Shown one piece after another: positions 1 to 37,437 of a stretch of 64,000 bases of DNA. The notes beneath the pieces were generated by a model, which was given only the letters and a program-made list of their open reading frames with translations, was not told the DNA's origin and did not search any database. The translations under genes and the position numbers were made by a program. The stretch comes from Candidatus Woesearchaeota archaeon (lineage in GTDB: Archaea; Nanobdellota; Nanobdellia; Pacearchaeales; GW2011-AR1), in contig CAZSGW010000002.1 of assembly GCA_964606775.1 (NCBI GenBank), positions 16,129-80,128 of the forward strand. Direction: 5' to 3'. Position 1 is the first letter of the stretch, and each line of letters begins with the position of its first letter.

Positions 1-922
1 TTTCTCCTGAAAGCATAATAGCATCCGCACCAAGATAAATAGCATTAGCAACATCCGAAACTTCTGCCCTTGTAGGACGAGGATTTTCTATCATTGTATG
101 GAGCATTTGCGTTGCGACAATAACTGGTTTCTTTTTTTCAATACATTTCTCAATCAAGTGCCTTTGGATTGAAGGAATTTTTTGGGCGTCAATTTCAATT
201 CCTAAATCCCCTCTTGCAATCATTATCCCATAAACATTATCTAAAATCTCTTCGATATTATCTACTCCCTCTTGATTTTCTATTTTAGCAATTATTTTTA
301 TATTGCTATTTTTTTCATCCAATATTTTTTGTATTTCTTTAACATCTTCCTTGTTTCTAACAAAAGAATGTGCGATAAAATCAATATCATTTTCTATTGC
401 AAAATCAATATAACCCCTATCTTTTTTATTTAATGCAGGAAGATTCATATGCCTGCTCGGAACATTAACACTTTTCTTTCCTTTTATCTTCCCAGAATTA
501 TTTGCCTTACATTTTAGTTTATTATCTTCTTTGCAGACAATTTCTAATTCTATATCTCCATCATCTACTAGTATTTTATCTCCTTTCTCAACATCTTCTA
601 CAAATTTATCGTGAGTTAAATATATACATTTCTTTGAAGATTCTTTCTTGCAATCCCCTTCCATAATTATCTCTTGATTCTTATCCAACTCAATTTCTTC
701 AGAACATTTTGTTGTCCTTATCTCTGGACCTTTTGTATCTAACAATAATGGAATCTTGTTTGAAACTTTTTTGACATTCTCAATAATTCTTTTTGTTCCT
801 TCAAAATCTTGATGTGCAGTATTTAGTCTTACGACATTCATTCCCTCCTCATGTAACTCTCGTATAAATTCCTCAGAGCAATTCAAATCCGAAATAGTAG
901 CAACAATTTTTGTATTTTTCAT
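1..922 (-). CDS. pyk: pyruvate kinase, N-terminal part (C-terminus lies beyond window start)
   Basis: rc translation from ATG at 920-922 reads [12 protein letters not shown]...[12 protein letters not shown]...[11 protein letters not shown], the classic PK N-terminus; reading frame is open to window edge. Confidence 0.8.
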
Positions 923-963
923 TTGAACCATTACAATCTAAAAACTAGTTTATAAATTTTATC

Positions 964-1392
964 TTAAAATAAATCATTTACTATTTCATAACCTAAATTC
1001 TTTGCTTCTTTCTCAAATTTGAAAAATTTATTTTCTTTTTTTGCAGGACATCTGGGAGATATCTTTATTTTCTTACCTAAAATAAATATCGGGAAGTCTT
1101 TACAAGTTAAAGGTCTTTTATCGTTCCCATGAATCTTACAACGAAACTTCGAATCGAGTGCAGGACATCTTCCTATGCTATTCCCGAAATTTAATGTGAA
1201 TTTCCCATTCCACATTTCTTTAACAGAACCCTCTTCAAGAAGTTTTTCTCGAATATTTTTGGTGATTAAATTCAACTCTTCATCTTGAACAATTAAGTAT
1301 CCTTTACGACAACAATAAGCTTTGCATTCGTTGATACAAAAATCACTCAAACTCTCTCGAGCTTCCTTAGCAAGTTTTTCAATTTTTTTCAA
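964..1392 (-). CDS. Cys-rich YkgJ/UPF0153-like putative Fe-S/zinc-binding protein
   Basis: CxxCxxxCC motif (CINECKAYCC) plus further Cys pairs; 142 aa. Confidence 0.45.
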   Translation of the reverse strand: MKKIEKLAKEARESLSDFCINECKAYCCRKGYLIVQDEELNLITKNIREKLLEEGSVKEMWNGKFTLNFGNSIGRCPALDSKFRCKIHGNDKRPLTCKDFPIFILGKKIKISPRCPAKKENKFFKFEKEAKNLGYEIVNDLF

Positions 1393-1547
1393 GTGTATAA
1401 ATAAATCCTATTACAGAAAATATCTTAGAATTATTTGATTCGGGATTATTTAAATTATTTGTTTCAAAAAGACTTAACTTTCCAAATTGATTTATCAAGA
1501 AATTTACATCCCCTCTTCATATTTTTTAAATAAAGATTTTTTGATAA

Positions 1548-1787
1548 TTATCCCTTTTTATTTAGATATTTTTTATACTTTTCAATATCTTTTTGTACTT
1601 CATAAGCGTTCACCCCTTTCCAATAACCTTTTCCATTATACTTTAACAAATCTTCAAGTTTTGAAACAATATTTTCTGCTAACTCGTTGGAAGGTTTTTC
1701 ATAATACTCTTTCTGTAAACCTCTAACATCCTTAACAAGTTCAACTATTTTCGCATCTTTAAACACCGCACTGATCCCATCCGACAT
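1548..1787 (-). CDS. hypothetical protein
   Basis: 79-aa ORF, protein-like composition; overlapping + strand ORF looks spurious. Confidence 0.3.
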   Translation of the reverse strand: MSDGISAVFKDAKIVELVKDVRGLQKEYYEKPSNELAENIVSKLEDLLKYNGKGYWKGVNAYEVQKDIEKYKKYLNKKG

Positions 1788-1823
1788 AATTGGAATAAGT
1801 GATATGCCTTTTAATAATTTTTC

Positions 1824-2609
1824 TCAATTCAATAATAAATTTTTCAAGAAATCTTTTTTTCTAGATTTCAATTTCTCAATTCCCTCTTTTTTTAATTGTC
1901 TCACTCTTTCAGGAGTCTTATTCATATTTTCTGATAACTTTTTTAACCTCTGTTTTTCCTTGCCTAAAAGTCCATGGTAATTTATTATGACATACGCTTC
2001 CCTTTCATTAAGTATACTAAGTGCTCTCTCAAGGGTTTTACTTATATGTTCTGTTTCAATGACTTCATGAAAATCATTTTCAGTCCAAAAACCTTTTGAG
2101 GGATTTATTTCATCTAGTGGACAAAATTCCAATTTTTCGCCTGGATTATAGAGTTCCACAGGGAATAAATCTTCTTCATATAGGGCGACCCCTCTTTTAA
2201 GAAAATAATCCGAAATATTTTTTTTAATTTTCTTGCTTGGATTTACTTCAAAACTTTCTATTTGAGAATAATAGATTGGATGTATTCCTAATTTTTTTGA
2301 AATTTGATTAACATTCATATCTAAATTTCTTCTAGCCTTTTCAAGAATTTCATTTTTTCTTGTCTCTTTTTTATAAGAATCATACATTCTTTTTGAAAAC
2401 ACTTTTTCTTTTTCTATTTTAATATTTTTTTGCTCCAATTTCCGAGTTATTATTTCTATGGATTTATTTCCAGGAATACGATTCAATGTTTCATAGCAAA
2501 TATAATTGGTGCGATCAATCCCAAGGTATTTGGAAAATTCTGTAAGATTCATCCCGAGTTTTTCTCTAACCTTTACAAGATAAGGATTTCTTTGTTTTTT
2601 TATTAACAT
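1824..2609 (-). CDS. DNA-binding protein with two XRE-type HTH domains and a sigma-70 region-4-like C-terminus
   Basis: two HTH segments (LTEFSKYLGIDRTNY; NQISKKLGIHPIYYSQIE) and C-terminal ...NKTPERVRQLKKEGIEKLKS resembling sigma region 4.2. Confidence 0.5.
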   Translation of the reverse strand: MLIKKQRNPYLVKVREKLGMNLTEFSKYLGIDRTNYICYETLNRIPGNKSIEIITRKLEQKNIKIEKEKVFSKRMYDSYKKETRKNEILEKARRNLDMNVNQISKKLGIHPIYYSQIESFEVNPSKKIKKNISDYFLKRGVALYEEDLFPVELYNPGEKLEFCPLDEINPSKGFWTENDFHEVIETEHISKTLERALSILNEREAYVIINYHGLLGKEKQRLKKLSENMNKTPERVRQLKKEGIEKLKSRKKDFLKNLLLN

Positions 2610-2659
2610 GAAAATTAATCCAAAAGATTCTTTTTAAGAATTATCTCATTTCAAAATAA

Positions 2660-4822
2660 CTATTGATTCTCACTCAATCCTTTTCTTTCTCTAATCTTCT
2701 TAATTACATCGTCTTGCATACCTGATGGTATCTTTTCGAATTGCTGTTCCATTAGAGAAGAAGTCCCTCTCCCTTCTGTTGTTGACCTTAAATCATTGCT
2801 CCAACCAATCATTTCAGCTACTGGAATTTTTGCTTTAATTTGAGCAACTCCGCTTTCCTGATTCATATCAAGCATTTGCCCTCTCTTACTTCCAACTAAC
2901 TTTGTAATCGACCCCATAAAGTCCTCCGGAGCGTCAATCATATGAACCTGAAGTGGTTCGAATATAGCAGGACCCGCTTTGTTCATTGCGCCCTTAATAC
3001 CATCTCTAACCGCAGGATAAACCTGGGCAGGACCTCTATGGATCGCGTCCTCATGAAGCTTAATATCAACCAACGTAACTTTCATTTTCATACACGGTTC
3101 TCTTGCTAAAGGACCCTCGTCCATAACCATTTCAAAAGAATCCATAATCATTTCAATAACTTCTTGTATATGAACCTCTCCCCGAGTTTCATCCAAGAAC
3201 ATATTTCCTTTGTAAATATCTCTAACATTTCTAATCTCATCAGAACCCCATCCTAATTTTTCAGAAAGTGCTTTCGTAACCGCTTCGGATTTCTTCTTAA
3301 CTCTTCCCTCGGGCAAATCTCCCGACTTTATTAAATCATAGATTTCCTCTTCCAAAGGTTCAACCTTTATAAAAAATCCATTGTGTTTATTCGGAGACCT
3401 TCCTTCCGCAGGAGGAGATTCCTTTGTAACCGTTTCTCTATAAACAATAATTGGAGGCGAGGTCTTAACTTCTAAACCTTTCTCCGTCTTAATTCTATTC
3501 TCAATAATTTCTAAATGTAATTCTCCCATACCTGAAATTAATGATTCTCCGGTTTGTTCATTAATTGTAACCTTTATTGAAGGATCTTCTTTTCCAATTT
3601 GTTTTAATGTATCAACAAGTTTTGGCAAGTCCGCAGCTTTGGTTGGTTCAATGGATTTTGTAACAACCGGTTCAAACAAATGAGTAATGGCCTCGAAAGG
3701 GGTCATTTCTTGTTTTGAAACTGTCTCACCTGCAACAACATCTTTTAATCCAACAACTCCTACAATATTTCCAGCACTAACAGAATCAACAACAACTCTT
3801 TGCGCTCCCTTGTAAACCGAAACCTGTTGGACTCTCACGTTTCTCTTTGCAAGATTCATATAAATCTCATCACCCTGTTTAATTGTTCCTGAAAATAATC
3901 TTCCCGCAGCAATTTCTCCCGCGTGTTTGTCAATAACAATTTTAGTCGGAACAAAAACTGGCTCTCCATCGGCATCGCACTCCATTAAGTCTTTTCCAAT
4001 CTCGGTATTTTCATCTCCTCTCCAAATTCTTGGAATTCTATATTTTTGAGCTTCTAATGGATTAGGATGATGTTTAATACTCATATTTAAAACAACATCA
4101 TGAAGAGGAGCTTTTTTCGCTAACTCTTTGTGGTTGTCATTTTCATAAGCATCAATTATGTCTTTGAATGTAATATTATTTTTTTGCATATATGGGAAAC
4201 TCAAAGCCCAATTATGGAATGCAGAACCAAAAGCAACAGTTCCCTCTCCAACACCAACCTTCCACTTTTCTTTATATCCTTCAGGAGCAATTTGTTCTAT
4301 TAATCTATTAACATGATCAATAATAGAAATAAATTTCTTTTGCATTTCTTCTGGAGTTAATTTAACTTCTTTGATTAATCTATCAACTTTATTAATGAAT
4401 AAAACAGGTTTAACTAATTCCTTCAAAGCTTGTCTAAGAACAGTTTCTGTTTGAGGCATAACACCTTCAACAGCACATGAAAGAACAACACAGCCATCAA
4501 CAGCTCTCATAGCCCTTGTAACATCTCCTCCAAAATCAACATGCCCTGGAGTATCAATCAAATTTATCAAGTAATCTTCGTCGTTTAATCTATGAAGCAT
4601 CGAAACAGACGCCGAATCAATTGTAATTCCTCTTGAAGATTCATCTTCATGGAAGTCTAAAGCTCTTTGTTTTCCCGCAGTCTCTTCTGAGAGCATACCT
4701 GCACCAGCCAAAAGATTATCTGAAAAAGTAGTCTTCCCGTGATCGATATGGGCAGCGATTGCTATGTTTCTAATCTTCTCTCTGTTCTTCATTAATTTAA
4801 CAAAATCAATTTTTTCAGCCAT
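2660..4822 (-). CDS. fusA: translation elongation factor aEF-2
   Basis: AHIDHGKTT G1 motif, DTPGHVDF, diphthamide-site HRG motif (DAIHRGPAQ); 720 aa. Confidence 0.95.
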   Translation of the reverse strand: MAEKIDFVKLMKNREKIRNIAIAAHIDHGKTTFSDNLLAGAGMLSEETAGKQRALDFHEDESSRGITIDSASVSMLHRLNDEDYLINLIDTPGHVDFGGDVTRAMRAVDGCVVLSCAVEGVMPQTETVLRQALKELVKPVLFINKVDRLIKEVKLTPEEMQKKFISIIDHVNRLIEQIAPEGYKEKWKVGVGEGTVAFGSAFHNWALSFPYMQKNNITFKDIIDAYENDNHKELAKKAPLHDVVLNMSIKHHPNPLEAQKYRIPRIWRGDENTEIGKDLMECDADGEPVFVPTKIVIDKHAGEIAAGRLFSGTIKQGDEIYMNLAKRNVRVQQVSVYKGAQRVVVDSVSAGNIVGVVGLKDVVAGETVSKQEMTPFEAITHLFEPVVTKSIEPTKAADLPKLVDTLKQIGKEDPSIKVTINEQTGESLISGMGELHLEIIENRIKTEKGLEVKTSPPIIVYRETVTKESPPAEGRSPNKHNGFFIKVEPLEEEIYDLIKSGDLPEGRVKKKSEAVTKALSEKLGWGSDEIRNVRDIYKGNMFLDETRGEVHIQEVIEMIMDSFEMVMDEGPLAREPCMKMKVTLVDIKLHEDAIHRGPAQVYPAVRDGIKGAMNKAGPAIFEPLQVHMIDAPEDFMGSITKLVGSKRGQMLDMNQESGVAQIKAKIPVAEMIGWSNDLRSTTEGRGTSSLMEQQFEKIPSGMQDDVIKKIRERKGLSENQ

Positions 4823-4867
4823 TTTTATAGAAGTTAATTGAAAAATTAGTTTTTAAAGATTTTGGAG

Positions 4868-28051: not shown

Positions 28052-28267
28052 GAACCCTGGGAGATTCTTCAGATCACATCAAATAGTAGACCTGAAGCCT
28101 CTCCTGGGGAAAAAGAGGTGATATAAAATTGATGCATCACTAGTATTTAAATGTTTCGATTATGTTACCTCTTGAGAATGACAAGCGCTATTCAACATAA
28201 AGTAGTAAATCCTTAGGACTACTATATAATTTATTTATACACTACATATTATTTCTTATACACTACA

Positions 28268-29104
28268 TTATAAATTATCTAAAGGGCTTCGAGTGTTGAT
28301 TAAATTCGGCGAAGCAATATGAGTATAAATTAAAGTTGTCTCAGGAGATTTGTGCCCGAGCATTGCCTGAACATTCTGAACATCATAACCATTTTCAACT
28401 AAATGAGTAGCAAAACTATGTCTTAATGTATGCGGATGAACGTTCTTTTTTATTCCTGCTTTTTTAGTCGCGTTTAAAACAATTTTCTGCAAACTTCTTA
28501 TATTGTACTTTGTCCCACGATTACTTTGAAACAAATAATCTTTATCTTCCAAATTTTCGATTTCAATCAAATTCTTTATTTTTTCTCTAACAATTTTTGG
28601 TAATGTGATTAACCTATCTTTTCCGCCCTTTCCATTTCGCACATATCCATAATTTTTATCCAGTTCCAAATCTTTGATTTTGACATTAGTTAACTCCGAC
28701 ACTCTTAATCCCGAACCATACAAAAATTCAATCATCAATCTGTGTTTCCAATTTGAAATGGCATTTAATAATTTTCTAACTTCTTCTTTAGACAAAACTT
28801 CAGGTAATTTTTTTGGAGTTTTAGAATATTTTATATCTATCCACATTCTTTTTTCTAAAACATTTTCAAAAAGGAATCTAATTGCCATATGGCAAGTATT
28901 CATTGTACTTCCAGCTAAATTTTTCTCAGACAAATATTCAAGAAACAAACGAACATCCTTTTTCGAAATATATCTTAAATCTTTTTTTGACCAATTCAAA
29001 AACGAATGAATGCAATGCAAATAAGTTTTAGCTGTTTTTGGAGATAATCTTCTCCTTTTACACTCTTTAATTATTTTAGAATCAATGTCTACAAAAGTCT
29101 TCAT
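28268..29104 (-). CDS. tyrosine recombinase/integrase (XerC/D/A-like)
   Basis: catalytic motifs R...HPHTLRHSFATHLVENGYD...LGHKSPETTLIYTH with terminal Tyr. Confidence 0.9.
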   Translation of the reverse strand: MKTFVDIDSKIIKECKRRRLSPKTAKTYLHCIHSFLNWSKKDLRYISKKDVRLFLEYLSEKNLAGSTMNTCHMAIRFLFENVLEKRMWIDIKYSKTPKKLPEVLSKEEVRKLLNAISNWKHRLMIEFLYGSGLRVSELTNVKIKDLELDKNYGYVRNGKGGKDRLITLPKIVREKIKNLIEIENLEDKDYLFQSNRGTKYNIRSLQKIVLNATKKAGIKKNVHPHTLRHSFATHLVENGYDVQNVQAMLGHKSPETTLIYTHIASPNLINTRSPLDNL

Positions 29105-29242
29105 AGTTATTATTTAAAATATATGTTTAAATATATATTTTGAAACTCTAGAATAAAAACAAAAAAGTTTGAGGCTGAACCAAAATTTACTTCTTTTAAC
29201 CAACTTAAATGCTCAAATTTAAAGGAGTTCGTTAAAAGTCTG

Positions 29243-29482
29243 TTATATTCAATTTTCCTTAACAGGAAAACTTTGCTCAAACATTTTTATAGTTAACTCA
29301 CAACTTTATGGAAGTCGCTCAGATTGACTTCGCTCCATTCTCAAAAAGGAATATAACACTGATTATATTCAATTTTCCTTAACAGGAAAACTTTGCTCAA
29401 ACATTTTTATAGTTAACTCACAACTTTATGGAAGTCGCTCAGATTGACTTCGCTCCATTCTCAAAAAGGAATATAACACTGA
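29243..29482. repeat. perfect tandem duplication, 2 x 120 bp, plus degenerate start of a third copy
   Basis: 29243-29362 identical to 29363-29482; unit contains palindrome GAAGTCgctcagattGACTTC. Confidence 0.95.
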
Positions 29483-29598
29483 TTAGTTTCAATTGCAAAT
29501 TCTCTAAATTGTTGAGTTTGAAAATAGGAGAGGACACTTTAAAACCCCGACCACCCACCCCTGTTAGGAGATGTGTGCTTGGTTTTATCTTCGATAAA

Positions 29599-29627
29599 AC
29601 AGATAGTCAAAACTTTCAGTTTTGAGA
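29599..29627. promoter_or_regulatory. 29-nt motif ACAGATAGTCAAAACTTTCAGTTTTGA with 8-bp palindrome arms (copy 1)
   Basis: identical copy at 34960-34988; each upstream of a + strand membrane/secreted-protein gene. Confidence 0.5.
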
Positions 29628-29800
29628 TTTAATTGAAATAATCTTCCCCCAAAAATTGAAAAAACTTCTTTTATCGGACCAGAAAAATCTCTCGAAATTT
29701 CTTCAAAATTTCGCCTAACAAACGATAAAAGGTTCGCTCTGCTCTCCCAAATTTTTTCAAAAATGAAAAGCTTTTTATATTATGCTTTTTAATATATATT

Positions 29801-31240
29801 ATGAAAAGATTAATGGTGTTAATGAGTGTAGTATTAATTTTTAGTATGGTTAGTTTGGTTTCTGCAGATACTTGTACAGATACAGATGGATTAAATTTAT
29901 ATTCAAAAGGGATGATTTCAGGATACGAAGATGAAAATTATGGAGAGTTTGAAGATAGATGTACTATTAATCCTGGTTCAGATTATACTGTTCTTCAAGA
30001 AGGCTATTGTAAAGAAGATGGAAGTTCTGCAATTTTAACAATTACTTGTTCTAGTGAATGTGTTGAGGGAACATGTGTTGGAGAACAACAAAGTGTACCT
30101 AGTTGTTCTGATTCTGATGGAGGATTAGATTTTTATGAAAAAGGTTCTATATCTGGACCAAAATTTACAGGCAAAGAAGAGGATATTGTGAGTTCAAAAA
30201 CTTATGAGGATAGTTGCACAACTAAAGGAGATATGAATCAATTAGAATATTATTGTGATAGTGGGTTAATTGTTTCAGTAAGTCATTGGTGTCCGCAAGG
30301 GTGTAGTGATGGAGCTTGTTTGCCTGAACCTGTTTGTTATGATTCAGATGGTTTAGACTATTATAATAAAGGGTATACTCAAAAAGATGATGACCCTAAA
30401 ACTTATGATGGATGTAAATCACCACATGACGGGACTCTTTATGAAAGATTTTGTAGGGATGACGGCATTCCGTATATTGAAGATTTTTATTGTGAGTTTG
30501 GTTGTAAGGATGGAGCTTGTTTAGAAGAACCTAGTGAAGAAAATGAAACCTGTGTGGAAACAGATAAAGGTAAGGATAGATATTTGAAGGGTAGAACTTA
30601 TATTGGAAAAGATACTCATACTGATTCTTGTTATCAAGATTCTTTAGTTGAGTATTATTGTTCTTTTGATTTAGAAACTCAAAAAGATTTTATTAAAAAA
30701 GATACTCTTGAGTGTACTCAAGGATGTGAGGATGGAGCATGCGTCCAATTAGAATGTTCTGAAACAGATAATGGGAAAGATGGTTTTGTTAAAGGAACAA
30801 CATGGATTGGAGAAGACACTCACACAGACGCTTGTTATAATAACAATGTTGTTGAGTACTATTGTTCTTTTGATTCTGAATTAGATAAACCTTTTATTAA
30901 AAAAGATGAGATAATTTGTGAAGCGGGATGTGAAGATGGGGCTTGTTTAAATAAAACAATAATAAAACCAGATTTAGATGAAGGTCCAGAAGAAATAAAT
31001 GACTTTAACAAATATTTTTGTTATGGGTGTTTAGTGGAGAAGTCATGTTATCCATTAGGATATAGAAAAGGTGGAGATTATTGTTCTGATGAAAATAATG
31101 AATTTATAGTTCAATTAGAAGCAGAATCTTCTTGCGAAAATAATTTTGAATGTGATAGTAATCTTTGTATAAATGATGAGTGTGTAAGTGGAAGCTTATG
31201 GGCTAAATTTATAAGATGGTTAAGTAAGATTTTTGGTTAA
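29801..31240 (+). CDS. secreted Cys-rich protein with five tandem ~70-aa repeats
   Basis: N-terminal signal/TM, repeats each ending GC(E/S/K)DGAC(L/V); C-terminal WAKFIRWLSKIFG motif. Confidence 0.7.
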   Translation: MKRLMVLMSVVLIFSMVSLVSADTCTDTDGLNLYSKGMISGYEDENYGEFEDRCTINPGSDYTVLQEGYCKEDGSSAILTITCSSECVEGTCVGEQQSVPSCSDSDGGLDFYEKGSISGPKFTGKEEDIVSSKTYEDSCTTKGDMNQLEYYCDSGLIVSVSHWCPQGCSDGACLPEPVCYDSDGLDYYNKGYTQKDDDPKTYDGCKSPHDGTLYERFCRDDGIPYIEDFYCEFGCKDGACLEEPSEENETCVETDKGKDRYLKGRTYIGKDTHTDSCYQDSLVEYYCSFDLETQKDFIKKDTLECTQGCEDGACVQLECSETDNGKDGFVKGTTWIGEDTHTDACYNNNVVEYYCSFDSELDKPFIKKDEIICEAGCEDGACLNKTIIKPDLDEGPEEINDFNKYFCYGCLVEKSCYPLGYRKGGDYCSDENNEFIVQLEAESSCENNFECDSNLCINDECVSGSLWAKFIRWLSKIFG

Positions 31241-31269
31241 AAAATTTTCCACCCCCAAGATTATTTCTT

Positions 31270-31290
31270 CTTCTTTTTAGAAAAAAGAAG
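31270..31290 (+). terminator. A/T palindromic hairpin with T-tract just after stop codon
   Basis: CTTCTTTTT-AG-AAAAAGAAG; same kind of element after stops at 33436-33454, 33475-33495, 36433-36451. Confidence 0.4.
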
Positions 31291-31750
31291 CAAAAAGACG
31301 CACACATCTCTTATTTAATGGGTTTTACAGACGGAACCCACCGTCCTAAAGTGTCCTCTCTAATTATATGACGAGAATTTGCAACTTTGATTTTTTGCCT
31401 TCGGCATCGTTGCACTAAAAATCAATCCTCACTTTGTTCGGAGAAACTAACAAGAATTCCCAGCGTCGATAAATCGACCAAATTTAAAATTTCATTTTTT
31501 GCCCACCCGACATAGGAGAAAAAAGCCTGCGTCCTTCGGGCAGATAGCTGAAACAAGTTTCAGAGAAAAACTTCTTTTACCCGACCGACGAGAAAACAAA
31601 CAAAATGCTTCGCACTTTGTATAACAAAGGGTAAAAGGTTTCACTCCGTTACACCCAAATTTTTCATTTAACTTGAGGGGTTCTTAGTCCTTCGGACAAA
31701 TTGTCGGCTCACGCCGAAATGATTAAAAGGTTTAAATTTTTTATTTTCTT

Positions 31751-32491
31751 ATGAATGAAAAAACTTCCCAAGAAGAATTGTTTAATTATATTCTTAACTT
31801 AACTCCAATAATTGAAATTGAAGAAGTAAAAAAAGATTTAACAACTTCAATGAAGAGAAGAGAATATATTAAAATAAATGGAAATAAAATTAATTTTTAT
31901 AATCTTAAAGCTCATTTAGATACAATACAAAGAAGAAAATATCTTAATAATTTCTGCCTTTATGAAATATCAAAAGATTGTGATAACAAAGATAATATAA
32001 CTAAAAAAGAAGTAGAATTTTTAGACAAAGAAAAAAATAATTATCTTCCAAACTTTCTTATTCAATGCGAATATTTTTTATTCTCAACAAAAACTATTTT
32101 TGATACAATTCTAAAAATGATAAATTACATTTTTCCAGAGGAATCTCAACCAACATCTTTTAGGAGAATGGAAAATTGGACAGATGAAATAAAAATTAAA
32201 TCTCTGATTTCTAGTAATTGGGATTGGTTTACTAAATTCAATGAATTAAGAAATAGCTTGACTCATGATGCTATTGCTGGAATAACAACACAAATAAAAA
32301 GCAAACCTCAAGAAGGAATAATTAATTATTCGAAGAGAAACCTAAAGATTTGGAATGAAAAAAGACAGGAGGAGGATATACTACAATTGCCCAATTATTT
32401 TGAAGAATGTTTTTCAAAAACTAAACAATTCATAAATAATTTTTATGAACTTTTACTAAAACAGAAAATAGAAGGAAATTCTATTTCTTGA
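31751..32491 (+). CDS. hypothetical protein (possible HEPN-like Rx4H motif)
   Basis: 246 aa; ELRNSLTHD motif. Confidence 0.45.
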   Translation: MNEKTSQEELFNYILNLTPIIEIEEVKKDLTTSMKRREYIKINGNKINFYNLKAHLDTIQRRKYLNNFCLYEISKDCDNKDNITKKEVEFLDKEKNNYLPNFLIQCEYFLFSTKTIFDTILKMINYIFPEESQPTSFRRMENWTDEIKIKSLISSNWDWFTKFNELRNSLTHDAIAGITTQIKSKPQEGIINYSKRNLKIWNEKRQEEDILQLPNYFEECFSKTKQFINNFYELLLKQKIEGNSIS

Positions 32492-32753
32492 TTAATTCTT
32501 TTGCGACCTTTTCACCTTCTTTTGTCCTCTTGTAAATCCTTCCCGTTCTATCTTCAGGATTTACAACTTCAACAAGTTTTTTATCTCTCAATTCAGATAA
32601 AGCACGAGAAACAAGATTAAAATAAGTGTTGCTGTTACTTTTGTAAATTTTCATAACTAATTCCGAAGGCATCATAGGTTTATCCAAATTCATAAAAACT
32701 TCTTTTCTATTTTTGCCTCTCTTTACAAAACCTATGGCTTTTAGCAATTCCAT
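32481..32753 (-). CDS. small winged-helix transcriptional regulator
   Basis: 90 aa wHTH-like. Confidence 0.5.
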   Translation of the reverse strand: MELLKAIGFVKRGKNRKEVFMNLDKPMMPSELVMKIYKSNSNTYFNLVSRALSELRDKKLVEVVNPEDRTGRIYKRTKEGEKVAKELIKK

Positions 32754-32846
32754 AGCAATCTATATACAAAGAAATTTAAGAAGCAAATTCAACAATCTAT
32801 TAGCAAAAGGAAAAGGTTTATAAAATAGTTTTCTCTATATTTTATT

Positions 32847-33425
32847 ATGGATAAAAAAGTGACTATTGGAATTGTTGTGGCAGTTATAGTTATCGTTGCA
32901 GGATATTTTATTTTCTTTAATCAATCATCTTCTACAATTTTACCTTCTAAACCTCAAACTTATAGCGGAGATGTTTCTAGTTTAGTTTTTAGTCTAGAAG
33001 AATTACCTGAAGGATACAAAATTGCCGAAAGAACTCCAAGAACAAAATCAGATGTTTCCGAAGAAGGTTTAAGTTGGGGATGGAGCGAAGGTTATTACAT
33101 AAGATATCTTAAAGGTGGAGAAGAAAGTTTATTTGATGTAAGCCGTATTGAGTTATATGTTTCAAGATATCCTTTAGAAAATGTAAGTAAGGGTATTGAA
33201 AATGGGGCTCCAGAATATGAAGGTTATACTATGGAAGAATTGCCAAATCCAAATATTGGCGAAATGTCTTTGGCGACAAGATACACAGATGATGATTTAG
33301 GTTTAAGAGAATATCAAATTGAATTTTATGATAAAGATATTTATATTACTCTTATGAATGGTGGTTCAGCAACAGATTATGAATTGTTAAAAGAACTCGC
33401 TAAAAAAATTGAAGGTAAGATTTAA
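32847..33425 (+). CDS. N-terminally membrane-anchored extracytoplasmic protein
   Basis: single N-terminal TM helix then soluble domain. Confidence 0.5.
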   Translation: MDKKVTIGIVVAVIVIVAGYFIFFNQSSSTILPSKPQTYSGDVSSLVFSLEELPEGYKIAERTPRTKSDVSEEGLSWGWSEGYYIRYLKGGEESLFDVSRIELYVSRYPLENVSKGIENGAPEYEGYTMEELPNPNIGEMSLATRYTDDDLGLREYQIEFYDKDIYITLMNGGSATDYELLKELAKKIEGKI

Positions 33426-33645
33426 TTCTGAAAACTTCTTTTAGAAAAAGAAGGCAAAATAAGAACCCCTCATTTTCTTTTTTAGAAAAAAAGAAACAAA
33501 AAAGGGCAGGCTTTTTTCTCTAATTATTTGGTCGTCGGAAACAACCATCCTCCTCCCCCACCCTAAAATGAAATTTTAAACTCACGAGGAAACTTTTTGT
33601 TTCAGCTCGTGCCCTTCGGGTCTGGGAACAGCAGATTAATTGCAA

Positions 33646-33820
33646 TTCTAAAACCTGCCTTTCTCGACGAGAAAGTAACCATAAATCCTAAAAGTTGTCG
33701 CCTTCGTTAAACGGACAAACGAGGAGAAAAAAAGAAATGCTTCGCACTTTCTTATAACAATCGTTTAACGGTTCGCTTCGCTCTCCCAAATTTTTTCTTG
33801 ATTGAAAGTTGGGGGGCTAA
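33646..33820. repeat. left arm of long imperfect inverted repeat
   Basis: TTCTAAAACCTGCC...AGTTGTCGCC...TTTTTTCTTGATTGAAAGTTGGGGGGCTAA matches rc of 34724-34830. Confidence 0.8.
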
Positions 33821-33822
33821 AA

Positions 33823-34059
33823 CTATTTTTTCCCAGACAGCCAAGAATTAATATGTTCTCTAACTTTTTTATTTGTGGCATAAAGAAAAATTCCTCCCAA
33901 TCCCACAATTACAGAACCAACATACGCAGGAACATCACCAATCAAAGATTTAATCACAAGAAAAACAACAACAATCATTATTGCTGCGACAATGATCAAT
34001 TTTCCTAAATCCAAAATGTCTTCTGTTAATTGTCTTGTTTCTCTGCTCATGTTAACCAA
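33823..34059 (-). CDS. small two-TM membrane protein
   Basis: 78 aa, hydrophobic core. Confidence 0.5.
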   Translation of the reverse strand: MVNMSRETRQLTEDILDLGKLIIVAAIMIVVVFLVIKSLIGDVPAYVGSVIVGLGGIFLYATNKKVREHINSWLSGKK

Positions 34060-34681
34060 ATACCTTTTTTAAGAATCCTTTTTTCTTAGGGGTAATTTTA
34101 GGCATACCATTCTCTTCCATTATCTTAATAACTGCTTCTGCCTGTGCTTTTGCCTCTTCTCCAATAAAGAGTTTTCCCAATTCGTTTATTTTTTCTTCAT
34201 ACCATTTACGTAAAGAAACGCCAAAAGCTTTCTTAGATAAATTTGGATTTTCAATTTCCATCTTTATTAATTTTTTTAATTCAACATCAATAAAAAATAC
34301 TTCTGCATAAACTATGTTAATCCTGTCTTTTTTATCTTCTCCTTTGTATGGAGTCCAAGAAATTGAAACTCTTTCGGGCAATTCATCCATTCTTCCAGCA
34401 TAAATCACATCTCTTAATATTGAAATTGCAAACCCATCAATTAAATCTCTTTTGTCCCTTAATTCTTCAGGACTACATTTCTTTCCTTTTGGGATTACTT
34501 TTATTTCAAACATCCTACTTCCTTCTTCGTTAATATGTCCTTTTTTATCTACATCTACATCCCAACCTAATTCCTCTGAATAATGGGATAATTCTTTTTT
34601 AGCATTAACAATCCCACTAGAAGTAGCACTAATTGTAAAATAGGTTTCAATCCATTTATAATTCTCTAAATCTTCTGCCAT
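34052..34681 (-). CDS. hypothetical protein
   Basis: 209-aa ORF overlapping downstream small membrane-protein gene. Confidence 0.5.
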   Translation of the reverse strand: MAEDLENYKWIETYFTISATSSGIVNAKKELSHYSEELGWDVDVDKKGHINEEGSRMFEIKVIPKGKKCSPEELRDKRDLIDGFAISILRDVIYAGRMDELPERVSISWTPYKGEDKKDRINIVYAEVFFIDVELKKLIKMEIENPNLSKKAFGVSLRKWYEEKINELGKLFIGEEAKAQAEAVIKIMEENGMPKITPKKKGFLKKVFG

Positions 34682-34723
34682 ATTATATAGATTAGAGAGA
34701 ACATATTTATAAAATTATCTATC

Positions 34724-34830
34724 TTAGCCCCCCAACTTTGTCTTTCAGACATTTAGTCTGCCTACGGCAGAGATATATAAAATCAAGAAAAAACTACGGC
34801 GACAACTGGATTTACGGCAGGTTTTAGAAC
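34724..34830. repeat. right arm of inverted repeat (shorter, deleted version of left arm)
   Basis: TTAGCCCCCCAACTT...GGCGACAACT...GGCAGGTTTTAGAA. Confidence 0.8.
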
Positions 34831-34959
34831 TTCTTCGGAAAACTTCGTTTTCCTCGACCACGCTGCGCTCTCGCCTTCGGCTCGGGGCAATTAACAGCGA
34901 TTATATTCAATCGTCGTGTAGATTTATTAAAAGGGGATTGCCGCCTTAGTCCCTTTGGG

Positions 34960-34988
34960 ACAGATAGTCAAAACTTTCAGTTTTGAAG
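34960..34988. promoter_or_regulatory. 29-nt palindromic motif copy 2
   Basis: identical to 29599-29627. Confidence 0.5.
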
Positions 34989-35035
34989 ATTTATTTACAA
35001 AGATTTTTATATCTCCATTTATATTTATATTCATA

Positions 35036-35515
35036 ATGGCAAGACATTATGATGACGGATATGAAATGTATGTTCCAGGAAAAAAGAAACATCATTCACA
35101 TCACTATTCCTCAAGAGGACATTTGAACTTTAAAAATTTCCTTAGAAGATATGTTTATTTTAGAATTCAAAATGATGTTGAACCCCATCTAAAACAATTT
35201 GGCATAATATTTATTATTGGACTTGTTTTGAATTATGTATATTATCAAACTCTTTCATTAAGATACCTCTTTATTGGAGGAGTAAATGAATGGTTTAATG
35301 TTCTAATGCCAACATTAAATTATGGTTTTGGGACAGGTTATAATTTATTTTATCTGATTATTAACGGAATTTTTTATGCCTATTTTTATTATAGTTTTAT
35401 ATTAGTTATTTACAATACGATAACTAATTTAGATGATAGAGATACATGGGTTATGATTGGATGGTTTGCATTAATAATATGGATAATAACAAAGATATTT
35501 CCGCAAATAATATAA
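35036..35515 (+). CDS. membrane protein, His-rich N-terminus (start placed at internal ATG)
   Basis: TATA-like ATTTATATTTATAT ~20 nt upstream of ATG 35036; ORF-track start 34955 would read through the conserved palindromic motif. Confidence 0.45.
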   Translation: MARHYDDGYEMYVPGKKKHHSHHYSSRGHLNFKNFLRRYVYFRIQNDVEPHLKQFGIIFIIGLVLNYVYYQTLSLRYLFIGGVNEWFNVLMPTLNYGFGTGYNLFYLIINGIFYAYFYYSFILVIYNTITNLDDRDTWVMIGWFALIIWIITKIFPQII

Positions 35516-35541
35516 ACAAATATTAACAATCAATTATAAAG

Positions 35542-36414
35542 ATGAAAGATAAAATCCTAAATCAAACAAAACATTTCTGTAAAAAGAAATGGAATCAGTT
35601 TACTTTTTGGTTTACAAAAAAAGAGCATCCAAGAAGTATATTAAATAAAAATGTGTTCTTTCATGATTTACTAAAAATTATCGGTTTAATTTTAGTATTC
35701 TTGATTGTTTATTCAAATGTTGATAAGCTAAATCAAATTGTTTTGATATTTATAAAAATAGGTTCACTATTACAACTCGTATTGCTTTTCTTTATTTTAA
35801 GAAAAGCATGGCATTTGACAATTAACTTGAAATACTTTTTTCGTGGACTAAACCATGGAACAAAAGCTATAATTGCTATCGCTTTGGTTTTATTACTCTT
35901 TATGGCTTTTCAAAATCAAGAAAAAGTAGTTGATTCGGTAGTTGAATCTTACGAAAAAGCAGAATTTCAAAAATTTAATCCTATTAATGCCAATCTAAAT
36001 TTATCTTCATTAAATCTTAAAGGAATAACAAAGCAACTTAACACTTGTCCACAAATTGATGTTCCTATTAATTTTCCTAAATATGGAGACCCTAATATCA
36101 AAAGTCAAACCTATGATGGATGGAAAGTTAAAGGAAGTGCAACTTGTAGAAAGGGAACAAAAGAAGGAGAAAATCTAAATAGATATTATTGTGGTGGATA
36201 TGAAAGTTTTATGGGAATAGGAAGTGTTAATGCTTATGTTGAAAAAACAACAATTTCTGATGACGGAGATATCGGAAAAACTTACAAATATGTTATATGG
36301 AATATTTATGATGAAGATAAAAACTTTGTAGAAACAAGATGTATCGGAGATCCTGACGAGTTTGATAAAAAACAAGCTGAAGCATTTTATAATGAAATGC
36401 TAAAATGGAGCTAA
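35542..36414 (+). CDS. membrane-anchored protein with Cys-containing extracytoplasmic domain
   Basis: N-terminal TM helices, C-terminal soluble domain. Confidence 0.5.
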   Translation: MKDKILNQTKHFCKKKWNQFTFWFTKKEHPRSILNKNVFFHDLLKIIGLILVFLIVYSNVDKLNQIVLIFIKIGSLLQLVLLFFILRKAWHLTINLKYFFRGLNHGTKAIIAIALVLLLFMAFQNQEKVVDSVVESYEKAEFQKFNPINANLNLSSLNLKGITKQLNTCPQIDVPINFPKYGDPNIKSQTYDGWKVKGSATCRKGTKEGENLNRYYCGGYESFMGIGSVNAYVEKTTISDDGDIGKTYKYVIWNIYDEDKNFVETRCIGDPDEFDKKQAEAFYNEMLKWS

Positions 36415-36633
36415 AAATCTAATTCTAATTTTCTTTTTTAAAAAAAAGAAACAAAAAAGGCGGCGGCAATCCCCAGAAAAAAAACTATACACACGACGAC
36501 TTTGAGTTTTCCCTTCGGGACGTTGCACTAAAACTCAATCCCTAACGGGAGAATATAACAAGGATTACATTCAATTTCTTCACTCCATTTAACAGCACAA
36601 AAGCAATAAAAACCCTCGACTCTTCACTCTTAA

Positions 36634-37437
36634 ATGGAAAAAGAAGTGAAACCAAATATAAAACAAGAACAAATTCACGACATTCTTTTCAATCGTGAAA
36701 TAGGTTGGCAAGAAATAATCTATGATTTAATCAACACTGAACAACTTGATCCTTGGGACGTAAATATTTCAATACTCGCCGAAAAGTATTTGGAAAAAAT
36801 AAAGGAACTTGAAGAGGCAGATTTCTTCGTATCTTCAAAAGTACTCCTCGCAGCTTCACTTTTACTAAGAATTAAATCCGAAATACTTCTAAACAAATAT
36901 ATCAAATCAATAGACGAAATACTTTTCGGAAAAGAAGAAAAAAAGAAATACGAAATGGAAAGGATAGAACTAGATGAACAAATACCCGAGCTAATACCAC
37001 GAAGCCCAATGCCCAGATTCAAAAAAGTTACTTTAAAAGAATTGATGGAGTCCCTAAATAAAGCAATATCAACAGAAAATAGAAGGATAAAAAAAGAAAT
37101 AATCAAGAAAAACGCATTAAGGGAATCCTCAATCTCTCTTCCAAAGAAAAATACAAGCATAAAAGACAAAATAAAAATAATCTACGAGAAAATAACAGGA
37201 CATTTTCTAAATAGCAAGACCCACAAAAAAGTACCTTATTCTCATTTGACTGGAGAAAAAAGAGAAGAAAGGATACACTCTTTCGGACCTTTACTACAAT
37301 TAGAAAACCAAAAGAAACTCTGGTTACATCAAGAAAATCACTTCGAAGAAATCCACATCTGGGAAAGAAAATCTTTTTGGAAACACAAAGGAGACCCTTT
37401 TGCAGATTTGCGTGAAGAGGAAGTTAAAAAAGAATAA
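36634..37437 (+). CDS. ScpA-like kleisin (segregation and condensation protein A), tentative
   Basis: N-terminal ...EQLDPWDVNISILAEKYLEKIKEL resembles ScpA N-terminal motif; 267 aa. Confidence 0.45.
   Translation: MEKEVKPNIKQEQIHDILFNREIGWQEIIYDLINTEQLDPWDVNISILAEKYLEKIKELEEADFFVSSKVLLAASLLLRIKSEILLNKYIKSIDEILFGKEEKKKYEMERIELDEQIPELIPRSPMPRFKKVTLKELMESLNKAISTENRRIKKEIIKKNALRESSISLPKKNTSIKDKIKIIYEKITGHFLNSKTHKKVPYSHLTGEKREERIHSFGPLLQLENQKKLWLHQENHFEEIHIWERKSFWKHKGDPFADLREEEVKKE

Follow-up and report, generated by a model that had tools for sequence, protein, structure and literature searches.

Upstream of the gene for a XerA-family tyrosine recombinase, a stretch of DNA from a Candidatus Woesearchaeota archaeon (contig CAZSGW010000002.1; the whole stretch of 64 kb is called the window) carries a run of genes separated by long non-coding spacers. 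Comparison with related loci makes it probable that this is a chromosomal gene-cassette array, built at a dif-like site beside xerA in a DPANN archaeon and parallel to the integron in function. As far as 36564 the array holds six cassettes, two of them empty, identical and 120 bp long, and four with one to three genes (Table 1). An earlier note on this DNA had proposed a platform that is integron-like but distinct, with a recombinase divergent from an array of cassettes; this proposal largely holds, and to it can be added the gain of cassettes at one site, termed site 0, and the key element overlooked in the earlier note, a set of 28-bp palindromic sites that resemble dif.

The recombinase, which the earlier note had placed on the minus strand, is a clear member of its family (Table 1) with a complete catalytic set (R134, K159/162, H225, R228, H251, Y260). 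It passes the NCBIfam equivalog model for archaeal XerA (XerA_Arch, NF040815; 228.5 bits against a cutoff of 220) and, at 212 bits, falls short of the cutoff of 265 set for the integron integrase by model TIGR02249, which it matches in two separate stretches. The alignment has no counterpart to residues 202-242 of IntI4 (2a3v), the additional domain specific to IntI, and the enzyme had rightly been described as free of this insertion. Among its matches in the PDB it is about equally close to Vibrio IntI4 (2e-43) and to the solved XerA structures of Thermoplasma and Pyrococcus (5hxy, 1e-41; 4a8e, 3e-40). Homologues at 60-86 % identity number in the hundreds and usually form one cluster per contig, so that the recombinase looks like a conserved chromosomal gene; the nearest are found in metagenome-assembled genomes of Pacearchaeota, Woesearchaeota and Nanoarchaeota, which places the host among the DPANN archaea, as a Pacearchaeota-like member.

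The palindrome GAATATAA-N6-TTATATTC lies where the two copies of a perfect 120-nt tandem duplication (29243-29482) meet, and it occurs again in spacers S5 and S6. Read on the xerA strand it becomes ATTGAATATAA-TCAGTG-TTATATTCC, two 11-nt inverted arms around a 6-nt spacer, and this 11-6-11 arrangement is the published format of dif (PMC2958812, PMC8371274). A position weight matrix (PWM) built from 28-bp dif-like sites detects only four in the 64 kb (29346, 29466, 34884 and 36548), shuffled sequence giving about 0.2, and all four sit within the array in the orientation of xerA; variant sites beyond this set are found at 29226, 31440 and 33619. The window therefore has several dif-like sites, every one at the single xerA locus. 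The earlier note had allowed for a chromosomal XerA with its dif elsewhere; the enzyme is indeed XerA-like, but the dif-like sites are at the array itself.

The relatives used for comparison comprise 15 genome loci and 51 metagenome loci, labelled L0nn, from a scan with the recombinase as query; flanks of 20 kb were covered in the relatives beside the 64-kb window, and the site census extends over loci with XerA at or above about 60 % identity. Within 16 related loci about 40 unique sites were counted; all of them lie on the xerA strand and upstream of the gene, one weak match elsewhere aside, and their spacing is mostly 430-1650 nt. Site 0 is located 136 nt upstream of xerA. More than 20 relatives have its left half, TTCG(C/T)(A/T)(T/A)AA-AG(T/C)CTG, at one constant distance from xerA, and its right arm changes with the first cassette. 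The stretch 29103-29259 aligns to the same position upstream of xerA in six relatives (L053, L009, L016, L017, L019 and L067) at 71-82 %, and this homology, which covers a region presumably holding the xerA promoter (29105-29225), stops at the site-0 right arm. Site 0, to which the difference between L018 and L003 (below) maps, is the putative insertion point and the analogue of attI. It agrees at 18 of 28 positions with the dif sequence of E. coli.

The cassettes follow a common plan, which reads on the plus strand as right arm, half of a private helix, leader, 0-3 genes pointing either way, trailer, second helix half, structured element (roughly 60-80 nt), left arm and spacer, with a total size of 0.12-2.2 kb. 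Right arms have the format TTAnnnnnAAT, left arms GGRnnnnnTAA, and the spacer is CAnnnn, of 6 and rarely 7 nt. The left arm is the reverse complement not of the right arm that adjoins it, but of the right arm of its own cassette, hundreds of bases upstream: on average 6.6 of 8 positions match the own right arm against 4.5 of 8 for the adjacent one, and the match is perfect in 24 of 41 cases (p = 3e-6). Each site in an array is a hybrid made of the left arm and spacer of cassette n and the right arm of cassette n+1. Because a left arm complements its own right arm, a circle, once excised, would have a single dif-like core, perfectly palindromic and placed at the tip of a long stem specific to the cassette.

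This plan also accounts for the spacers, which are S1 (29105-29800), S2 (31241-31750), S4 (33426-33822), S5 (34682-35035) and S6 (36415-36633). Their length had been given as 220-510 nt; the first measures 696 nt, and the observation that long non-coding spacers are present is sound. Units of an open reading frame (ORF) plus a structured site had likewise been proposed, and an array is what we find, but the spacers are not single sites: in each, the trailer of one cassette is followed by a hybrid core and then by the leader of the next cassette. The motifs said to be shared among the spacers are real, since direct-orientation local alignments of S1, S2, S4, S5 and S6 score 14-19 standard deviations above shuffles. 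The ORFs and the individual matches quoted there were recovered (31603-31618 is identical to 33735-33750, 29731-29758 matches 33770-33797 at 93 %, and the block 31384-31458 matches 36499-36566). Outside the array, the window has no further copies of these shared blocks. A shufflon or inversion model, raised earlier as an alternative, was rejected, all sites being direct repeats; the module taken to be inverted is cassette M2c, in which the genes point the other way and the polarity of the site is unchanged.

Just inside the arms of a cassette lies a private inverted repeat of 12-15 bp, often lengthened by further helices. Duplexes between leader and trailer have a mean of -24.0 kcal/mol for cognate pairs against -13.1 kcal/mol for non-cognate pairs of the same array (p = 7e-10), and for 22 of 39 cassettes the best-ranked trailer is the cognate one. 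The structured element next to the left arm occurs in two types. Type 1 has a 9-bp stem around a small hairpin and the block ACGTTGCACT, then a second hairpin that runs into the left arm; over 15 copies 96 % of the cells are paired, with compensatory changes in 9 of 12 pairs, a level of covariation that none of 500 shuffles reached and that is far lower in slid registers. Copies of type 2 have CCAC-GCTGCGC-TCTC instead. The predicted circle junction, that is trailer, core and own leader, folds as a four-way cloverleaf closed by the private helices; for cassette M3 this fold has -39 kcal/mol as DNA against -13 for shuffles (z about -10). No bulge-helix-bulge motif of RNA splicing was seen by eye in the end helices, and a search of the region with Rfam gave nothing at the gathering threshold and chance-level matches at E <= 5.

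Evidence for movement comes from pairs of relatives, from the changing neighbours of one leader and from the duplication of the 120-bp unit at exact site limits. Two loci of near-identical strains from different wells of the Hainich groundwater, L003 and L018, are 100 % identical over 168 nt beside xerA. L018 has an extra unit of 694 bp. In L003 site 0 is followed by the right arm TTTATTTCAAT, and the unit of L018 lies precisely between this arm and the site-0 spacer (...AAGTCTG); it starts with its own right arm and ends with the matching left arm and spacer. The difference is the product expected of the integration of a circle at site 0. L017 and L055, whose XerA proteins are 83 % and 57 % identical to that of the window, have in common a cassette of 888 nt at 94 % nucleotide identity, which starts at the crossover point and is the first cassette in one array and the second in the other; this points to horizontal transfer. 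A leader of the M3 type stands directly after site 0 in L009, and behind a different, unrelated partner in each of the window, L003, L004 and L019, which makes five upstream partners. The sequences show cassettes gained at site 0, with the crossover exactly between spacer and right arm.

The relatives vary accordingly. Invariance of the locus, named in the earlier note as a sign against a cassette system, is not what we observe: no relative matches in gene content, the two strains of one pair are set apart by exactly one cassette, and neither the genes that lie between spacers nor the housekeeping genes on the flanks are conserved. Nor are the spacers ordinary, as had been considered, given that arrays beside xerA in other genomes retain their elements, with nucleotide identities of up to 76-88 % where the XerA proteins share only 60-75 % (S2 against L005, 76 % over 364 nt; S4, 86 %; S6 against L004, 87 %). 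Synteny of flanking genes (S27ae, scpA and others) was found in none of the relatives, for which reason no genome with an empty site was identified. Contig ends near xerA, 15 upstream and 15 downstream, were uninformative on population variation.

We suggest that the adjacent XerA-family enzyme would catalyse both integration and excision of these units. The arms differ between cassettes and co-vary within them, so that arm sequence alone cannot suffice for recognition; this co-variation, the site-0 spacer AGTCTG set against the CANNNN of cassettes, and the fact that the spacer stays with the left arm argue for recognition by structure rather than sequence and for exchange of a single strand, with replication completing the reaction, as in the attI x attC recombination of integrons and in CTX-phi. 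The enzyme on the right arm would perform the strand exchange. Retention of the spacer with the left arm is what one expects of a tyrosine recombinase after a single bottom-strand exchange followed by replication.

The strand to be folded and exchanged would be the xerA-sense (bottom) strand. Across 49 kb of arrays, triloops of the form C(TNC)G outnumber C(GNA)G on the plus strand by 36 to 0, and in the window the ratio is 6:0 inside the array and 1:2 outside. On the xerA-sense strand, the TTC, TGC and TAC triloops that C-G closes on the plus strand are C(GNA)G, and 29 of 38 element copies have a conserved motif, G[CT]TGC[GA]C, that reads there as GCGNAGC; C(GNA)G and GCGNAGC are known as exceptionally stable DNA mini-hairpins (PMC13037366, PMC3201870). 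The long-range helices have 34 A.C against 8 G.T mismatches on the plus strand (p about 9e-4, composition allowed for), and such A.C mismatches are G.T wobbles on the xerA-sense strand. From the asymmetries of loops, wobbles and junctions, three indirect signals that agree on one strand, we infer that the xerA-sense strand folds and is exchanged. A reading of the hairpins as C(UUCG)G tetraloops of RNA was rejected, covariation and the loop census both giving a TTC triloop closed by C-G, with no TTCG among the common loops.

Cassette genes point in both directions equally often (27 plus, 27 minus) and several have TATA-like sequences 5' of them. Random gene orientation combined with fixed polarity of the element argues against a role of the end helices at the level of mRNA. 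In the relatives, Pfam identifies the cargo as S-adenosylmethionine (SAM) and D12 DNA methyltransferases, GNAT, NUDIX, CYTH and HAD proteins, an APH-type kinase, a PIN toxin, a nucleotidyltransferase and a protein of the metallo-beta-lactamase fold; in L008, the clearest case, six sites 620-880 nt apart delimit one small gene each, including a SAM methyltransferase, NUDIX and CYTH. In the window the cargo consists of a secreted cysteine-rich repeat protein, membrane proteins, a small winged-helix regulator and orphans. Given the accessory nature of this cargo (methyltransferases, GNAT, NUDIX, PIN toxin, HAD, APH, surface and membrane proteins), we infer that the array is a store of exchangeable adaptive genes.

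Integrons are the textbook device for gene capture in bacteria, and the array resembles them in several respects. In both, the recombinase gene is divergent from a one-sided array of small cassettes and insertion takes place at the recombinase-proximal site; the cassette sites are imperfect palindromes in which structure and not sequence is conserved, with strand-specific folding, predicted in the present case; the crossover falls just 5' of TT(A) (compare G/TTRRRY), and the central regions are non-homologous, implying single-strand exchange; and the cargo is rich in GNATs, toxins and methyltransferases. There are differences too. Here the enzyme has no IntI additional domain and passes the XerA model, and the primary site is dif-like; the palindrome is split, its halves being at the two opposite ends once a cassette is integrated, and the core has a separate structured element beside it; the genes run in both orientations (27/27) with TATA-like sequences and do not depend on a common Pc promoter. 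Of the features that define an integron, then, an array with proximal insertion beside an integrase was found, and an IntI domain and promoterless co-oriented cassettes were not. An attC site is an R''-L''...L'-R' imperfect palindrome of 57-141 nt at the 3' end of a cassette; inspection by eye here gives a compact core of arm, 6 nt and arm, ends like TAAC...GTTA and a long palindrome that is split, and revealed no canonical attC boxes. The few integrons reported from archaea, by Ghaly et al. (2022; PMC9668308), use canonical IntI and attC; these authors are the source of a further case, in that their supplement lists three attC hits and no IntI on contig MNVY01000022.1 of a Pacearchaeales genome (GCA_001872325.1), and these hits may be an instance of the present type of array as seen by IntegronFinder.

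The array can also be compared with other Xer-dependent systems. The integrative mobile elements exploiting Xer (IMEX) that reside at dif, such as CTX-phi, TLC-phi and the gonococcal genomic island GGI (PMC5357621), likewise use the host Xer enzyme and the chromosomal dif and form tandem arrays, and CTX-phi integrates as folded single-stranded DNA with one strand exchange and a non-homologous central region (PMC5357621). These are bacterial systems served by XerC/D, and consist of phages or large islands with replication or transfer genes of their own, whereas here we have an archaeon with apparently a single XerA, cassettes from below 1 kb to 2 kb and an array beside the xer gene; units without an integrase and flanked by dif-like sites are common to both, replication and transfer functions are not. 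The pdif or dif modules of Acinetobacter (PMC12907356, PMC7399989) are also small gene modules bounded by Xer sites and thought to be moved by Xer, but they are mostly borne on plasmids, have alternating site orientation, are unlinked to xer genes, and are without private end helices or structured elements. With the dimer resolution system XerA/dif of archaea (PMC2958812, PMC8371274) the array shares the enzyme family and the 11-6-11 format, and its enzyme fits the equivalog model and has the R-K-H-R-H-Y residues next to 28-bp sites; dif is described there as single-copy, and some archaea are known to have xerA/dif modules in which gene and site adjoin (PMC5357621). In its enzyme and in the format of its sites the system belongs to XerA/dif, while its logic resembles that of the IMEX arrays and the Acinetobacter dif modules. 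In the literature searched we found no description of XerA-linked cassette arrays, archaeal IMEX or integron-like systems of DPANN archaea.

The units could instead be tandem parasites or satellites of the IMEX type that hijack XerA at dif, in which case the array would be a graveyard of elements and not a capture platform. They do integrate at a dif-like site beside xerA without encoding an integrase, the IMEXs of Vibrio are known to form arrays at dif (PMC5357621), and the conserved leader and trailer modules could serve element maintenance. However, the units measure 0.12-2 kb, their cargo includes ordinary accessory enzymes, and Pfam finds no replication, capsid or transfer family among the cargo proteins tested. 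The window cargo has no match to a functionally annotated phage family in PHROGs, where the single match is to a family of unknown function, and PADLOC gives two weak matches, all of these on the winged helix-turn-helix (wHTH) protein; IMG/VR has no match for two conserved motifs. We therefore regard this explanation as unlikely, and note that it differs from a capture platform in who benefits, the mechanism being the same. A provirus or plasmid origin was rejected on the blank IMG/VR search and the weak wHTH matches from PHROGs and PADLOC.

The structured blocks could also be non-coding RNA genes or transcript-end elements in a variable island, the palindromes being protein-binding or terminator sites and the adjacency of xerA incidental. 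Hairpins with strong covariation, T-runs after genes and after module C, and some predicted G-U pairs on the plus strand would fit such an origin; against it, there is no Rfam family, the register of the loops corresponds to TTC triloops rather than to UUCG tetraloops, each private helix reaches from one end of a cassette to the other regardless of gene orientation (27:27), homology between genomes begins exactly at the spacer/arm junction, and sites in dif format lie only upstream of xerA, all of which makes it very improbable. Least credible of all is that we see transposon-like elements, of the kind of miniature inverted-repeat transposable elements, moved by a transposase encoded elsewhere and gathering near xerA. 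Each unit does have terminal inverted repeats, but these differ in every unit so that no single transposase could recognise them, no target-site duplications were seen, the copies have one polarity and one locus, and insertion occurs at the same nucleotide of site 0.

Several observations nevertheless weigh against a XerA-driven cassette array as proposed here, or against parts of it, and it should be interpreted with these in mind. In 17 of 39 cassettes the cognate trailer is not ranked top, and some are without clear private helices. Some units have several kb and many genes (4.7 kb in L017) and may not be cassettes. The choice of strand derives from moderate counts (34 against 8, and 36 against 0 loops), a nearest-neighbour model of DNA folds both strands equally well, and a hairpin of both arms gives only one duplex binding site. 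In the leader module D+C (below), RNAalifold places G-U pairs on the plus strand. The housekeeping role of XerA and its tie to the array are deduced from adjacency, and the reading as a whole is drawn from comparative sequence evidence in metagenome assemblies.

DPANN archaea have tiny genomes, and little is known of their mobile-element machinery. A cassette platform of the XerA type would, if true, give them a dedicated route of gene exchange; it would show that structure-specific single-strand recombination arose or persisted outside the IntI lineage, and, as a platform arising directly from an Xer/dif module, would supply a concrete intermediate between Xer/dif systems and the integrons long assumed to descend from them. 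The rules of the sites, namely the hybrid left arm(n)-spacer(n)-right arm(n+1), the private end helices and GCGNAGC on the xerA-sense strand, let metagenomes be searched systematically. The wider proposition, that the Pace- and Woesearchaeota among the DPANN own a second and independently built kind of integron, in which a housekeeping-type XerA captures and shuffles cassettes at its own dif through a cassette-specific cloverleaf of folded single-stranded DNA, closed by both cassette ends and bearing GNA mini-hairpins, on the xerA-sense strand only, seems to us evenly balanced between acceptance and doubt.

Table 1. Components of the array and of the adjoining xerA locus, in coordinates of the window.
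Feature	Coordinates	Strand	Remarks
XerA-family tyrosine recombinase, 278 aa	28268-29104	-	Pfam Phage_integrase (E 5.6e-45) and SAM-like N domain
xerA-proximal intergenic region	29105-29225		conserved in relatives as far as site 0
Site 0, primary dif-like site	29226-29253	-	plus strand AGTTCGTTAAA-AGTCTG-TTATATTCAAT
Empty cassette, copy 1, 120 bp	29243-29362	+	perfect tandem repeat
Empty cassette, copy 2	29363-29482	+	100 % identical to copy 1; hybrid cores 29346, 29466
Cassette M2a	29483-31456	+	leader, gene 29801-31240, trailer, structured element 31384-31439, left arm 31440-31450, spacer 31451-31456
Leader module D+C, copy 1	29582-29760	+	further copies 31530-31665; C only 33702-33797
Cassette M2b	31457-33635	+	right arm TTCCCAGC (variant), three genes, left arm GTCTGGGAA 33620-33628, 7-nt spacer CAGCAGA 33629-33635
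Cassette M2c	33636-34900	+	right arm TTAATTGC, two minus-strand genes (33823-34059, 34052-34681), left arm GGGGCAATTAA, spacer CAGCGA
Cassette M3	34901-36564	+	right arm TTATATTC, leader helices 34911-34945, trailer helices 36461-36499, left arm GGAGAATATAA, spacer CAAGGA
Distal right arm, array end	36565-36575	+	TTACATTCAAT; core 36548, PWM score 33.1

The cassettes of the window illustrate the range of the plan. The 120-bp unit is a geneless cassette built on this plan, a loop of 4 nt closing its private helix: a right arm is followed by the closed P0 hairpin TTTTCCT-TAAC-AGGAAAA, a degenerate structured element, the left arm AAGGAATATAA and the spacer CACTGA. The limits of its duplication fall exactly at the spacer/right-arm junctions, and an independent Logan unitig (L001, a k-mer assembly) breaks 30 nt into the unit. 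The ORFs of the gene-bearing cassettes start at 29801, 31751, 32847, 35036 and 35542 on the plus strand, with three more on the minus strand (32481-32753 besides the two of M2c). They had been described as a series for secreted, membrane or cysteine-rich proteins, which holds in part, the protein at 31751 being without an obvious membrane or secretion signal.

In M2a the arms TTAGTTTC and GAAACTAA match one another, private end helices are formed by 29493-29504/31373-31384 and 29523-29580/31296-31360, and the predicted circle junction folds with -88.7 kcal/mol. Its protein is cysteine-rich and secreted, with internal repeats of about 200 nt in the gene (30557-30703 and 30761-30907 are 74 % alike) and a repeated GCxDGAC motif; Pfam has no match for it. 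The C-terminal part of this gene together with the trailer is 80 % identical to a stretch of L004. M2b contains genes at 31751-32491 (plus), 32481-32753 (minus, wHTH) and 32847-33425 (plus). Its odd right arm TTCCCAGC at 31457 pairs with its own distal partner TCTGGGAA at 33620 in 7 of 8 positions, which explains the apparent half-site in S2. Leader and trailer match in inverted orientation (31483-31530 and 33506-33580), and both surround another gene, for a zincin, in L005. The small winged-helix gene of M2b with its promoter region (32506-32807) has 83 % nucleotide identity to L062, where XerA is only 53 % identical, which suggests that this gene travels between distant genomes.

M2c has private helices at 33646-33659/34816-34829, 33791-33803/34781-34793 and 33805-33820/34724-34739, and a structured element of type 2 with GCTGCGC; its core at 34884 has a PWM score of 38.8. 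M3 contains two membrane-protein genes (35036-35515 and 35542-36414) and a type-1 structured element (36499-36547). Its P0/P1 duplex of -40.9 kcal/mol is the top-ranked of all trailers, and the circle junction would read GGGAGAATATAACAAGGA joined directly to TTATATTCAATCGTCGTG.

Some of the cassettes only, as well as L005, L010 and L019, carry the leader module of about 150 nt. It is made of hairpins with co-varying stems between the invariant blocks AGAAAAACTTCTTTTATCCGACC, TATAACAAAGGATAAAAGGTT and CCCAAATTTTT, which are conserved as single-stranded stretches, and ends in CCCAAATTTTTT; compensatory changes are seen in the helix CTTCTTTTATCC/GGATAAAAGG. The module may act as a small RNA, as a priming signal or as a platform to which proteins bind.

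The distal right arm at the end of the array is presumably that of the original dif. Judging by eye from its translation, the gene right after the array (36634-37437) looks like scpA, for segregation and condensation protein A, and the ancestral locus may have been a chromosome-segregation cluster xerA-dif-scpA; scpA was not beside xerA in any relative fetched.

At greater distance the element motif was not found in XerA clades of 52-57 % identity. L036 (XerA 55 %) has sites of its own, ATTGAGCCTAA-TTATC-TTAGGCTC, about 760 nt apart, on the xerA strand and upstream of xerA; site and enzyme seem to co-evolve. The array sites of such distant clades span 6302-7845 in L036 and are also seen in L050 (7817, 8387). 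In L017 (array 170-4829) one shared cassette is followed by a 3.6-kb run of seven co-oriented genes with no detectable site, including an ArsR-like regulator, a cysteine desulfurase and a phosphatase; either the sites have degenerated or the array ends there.

On the other side of the recombinase, the spacer 28052-28267 at its 3' end has no sequence in common with the other spacers and is not a component of the cassette system. Directly past the xerA stop codon it holds a long GC-rich hairpin, CCTGGGAGA...TCTCCTGGG (28055-28112), which is absent from all relatives and matched only in a Logan contig from the same genome, and which may be a transcript-end structure. The immediate left neighbours of the array region encode RNA polymerase subunit E', Spt4, S24e and S27ae, in a window that is archaeal and AT-rich (GC about 31 %) and has five tRNA genes.

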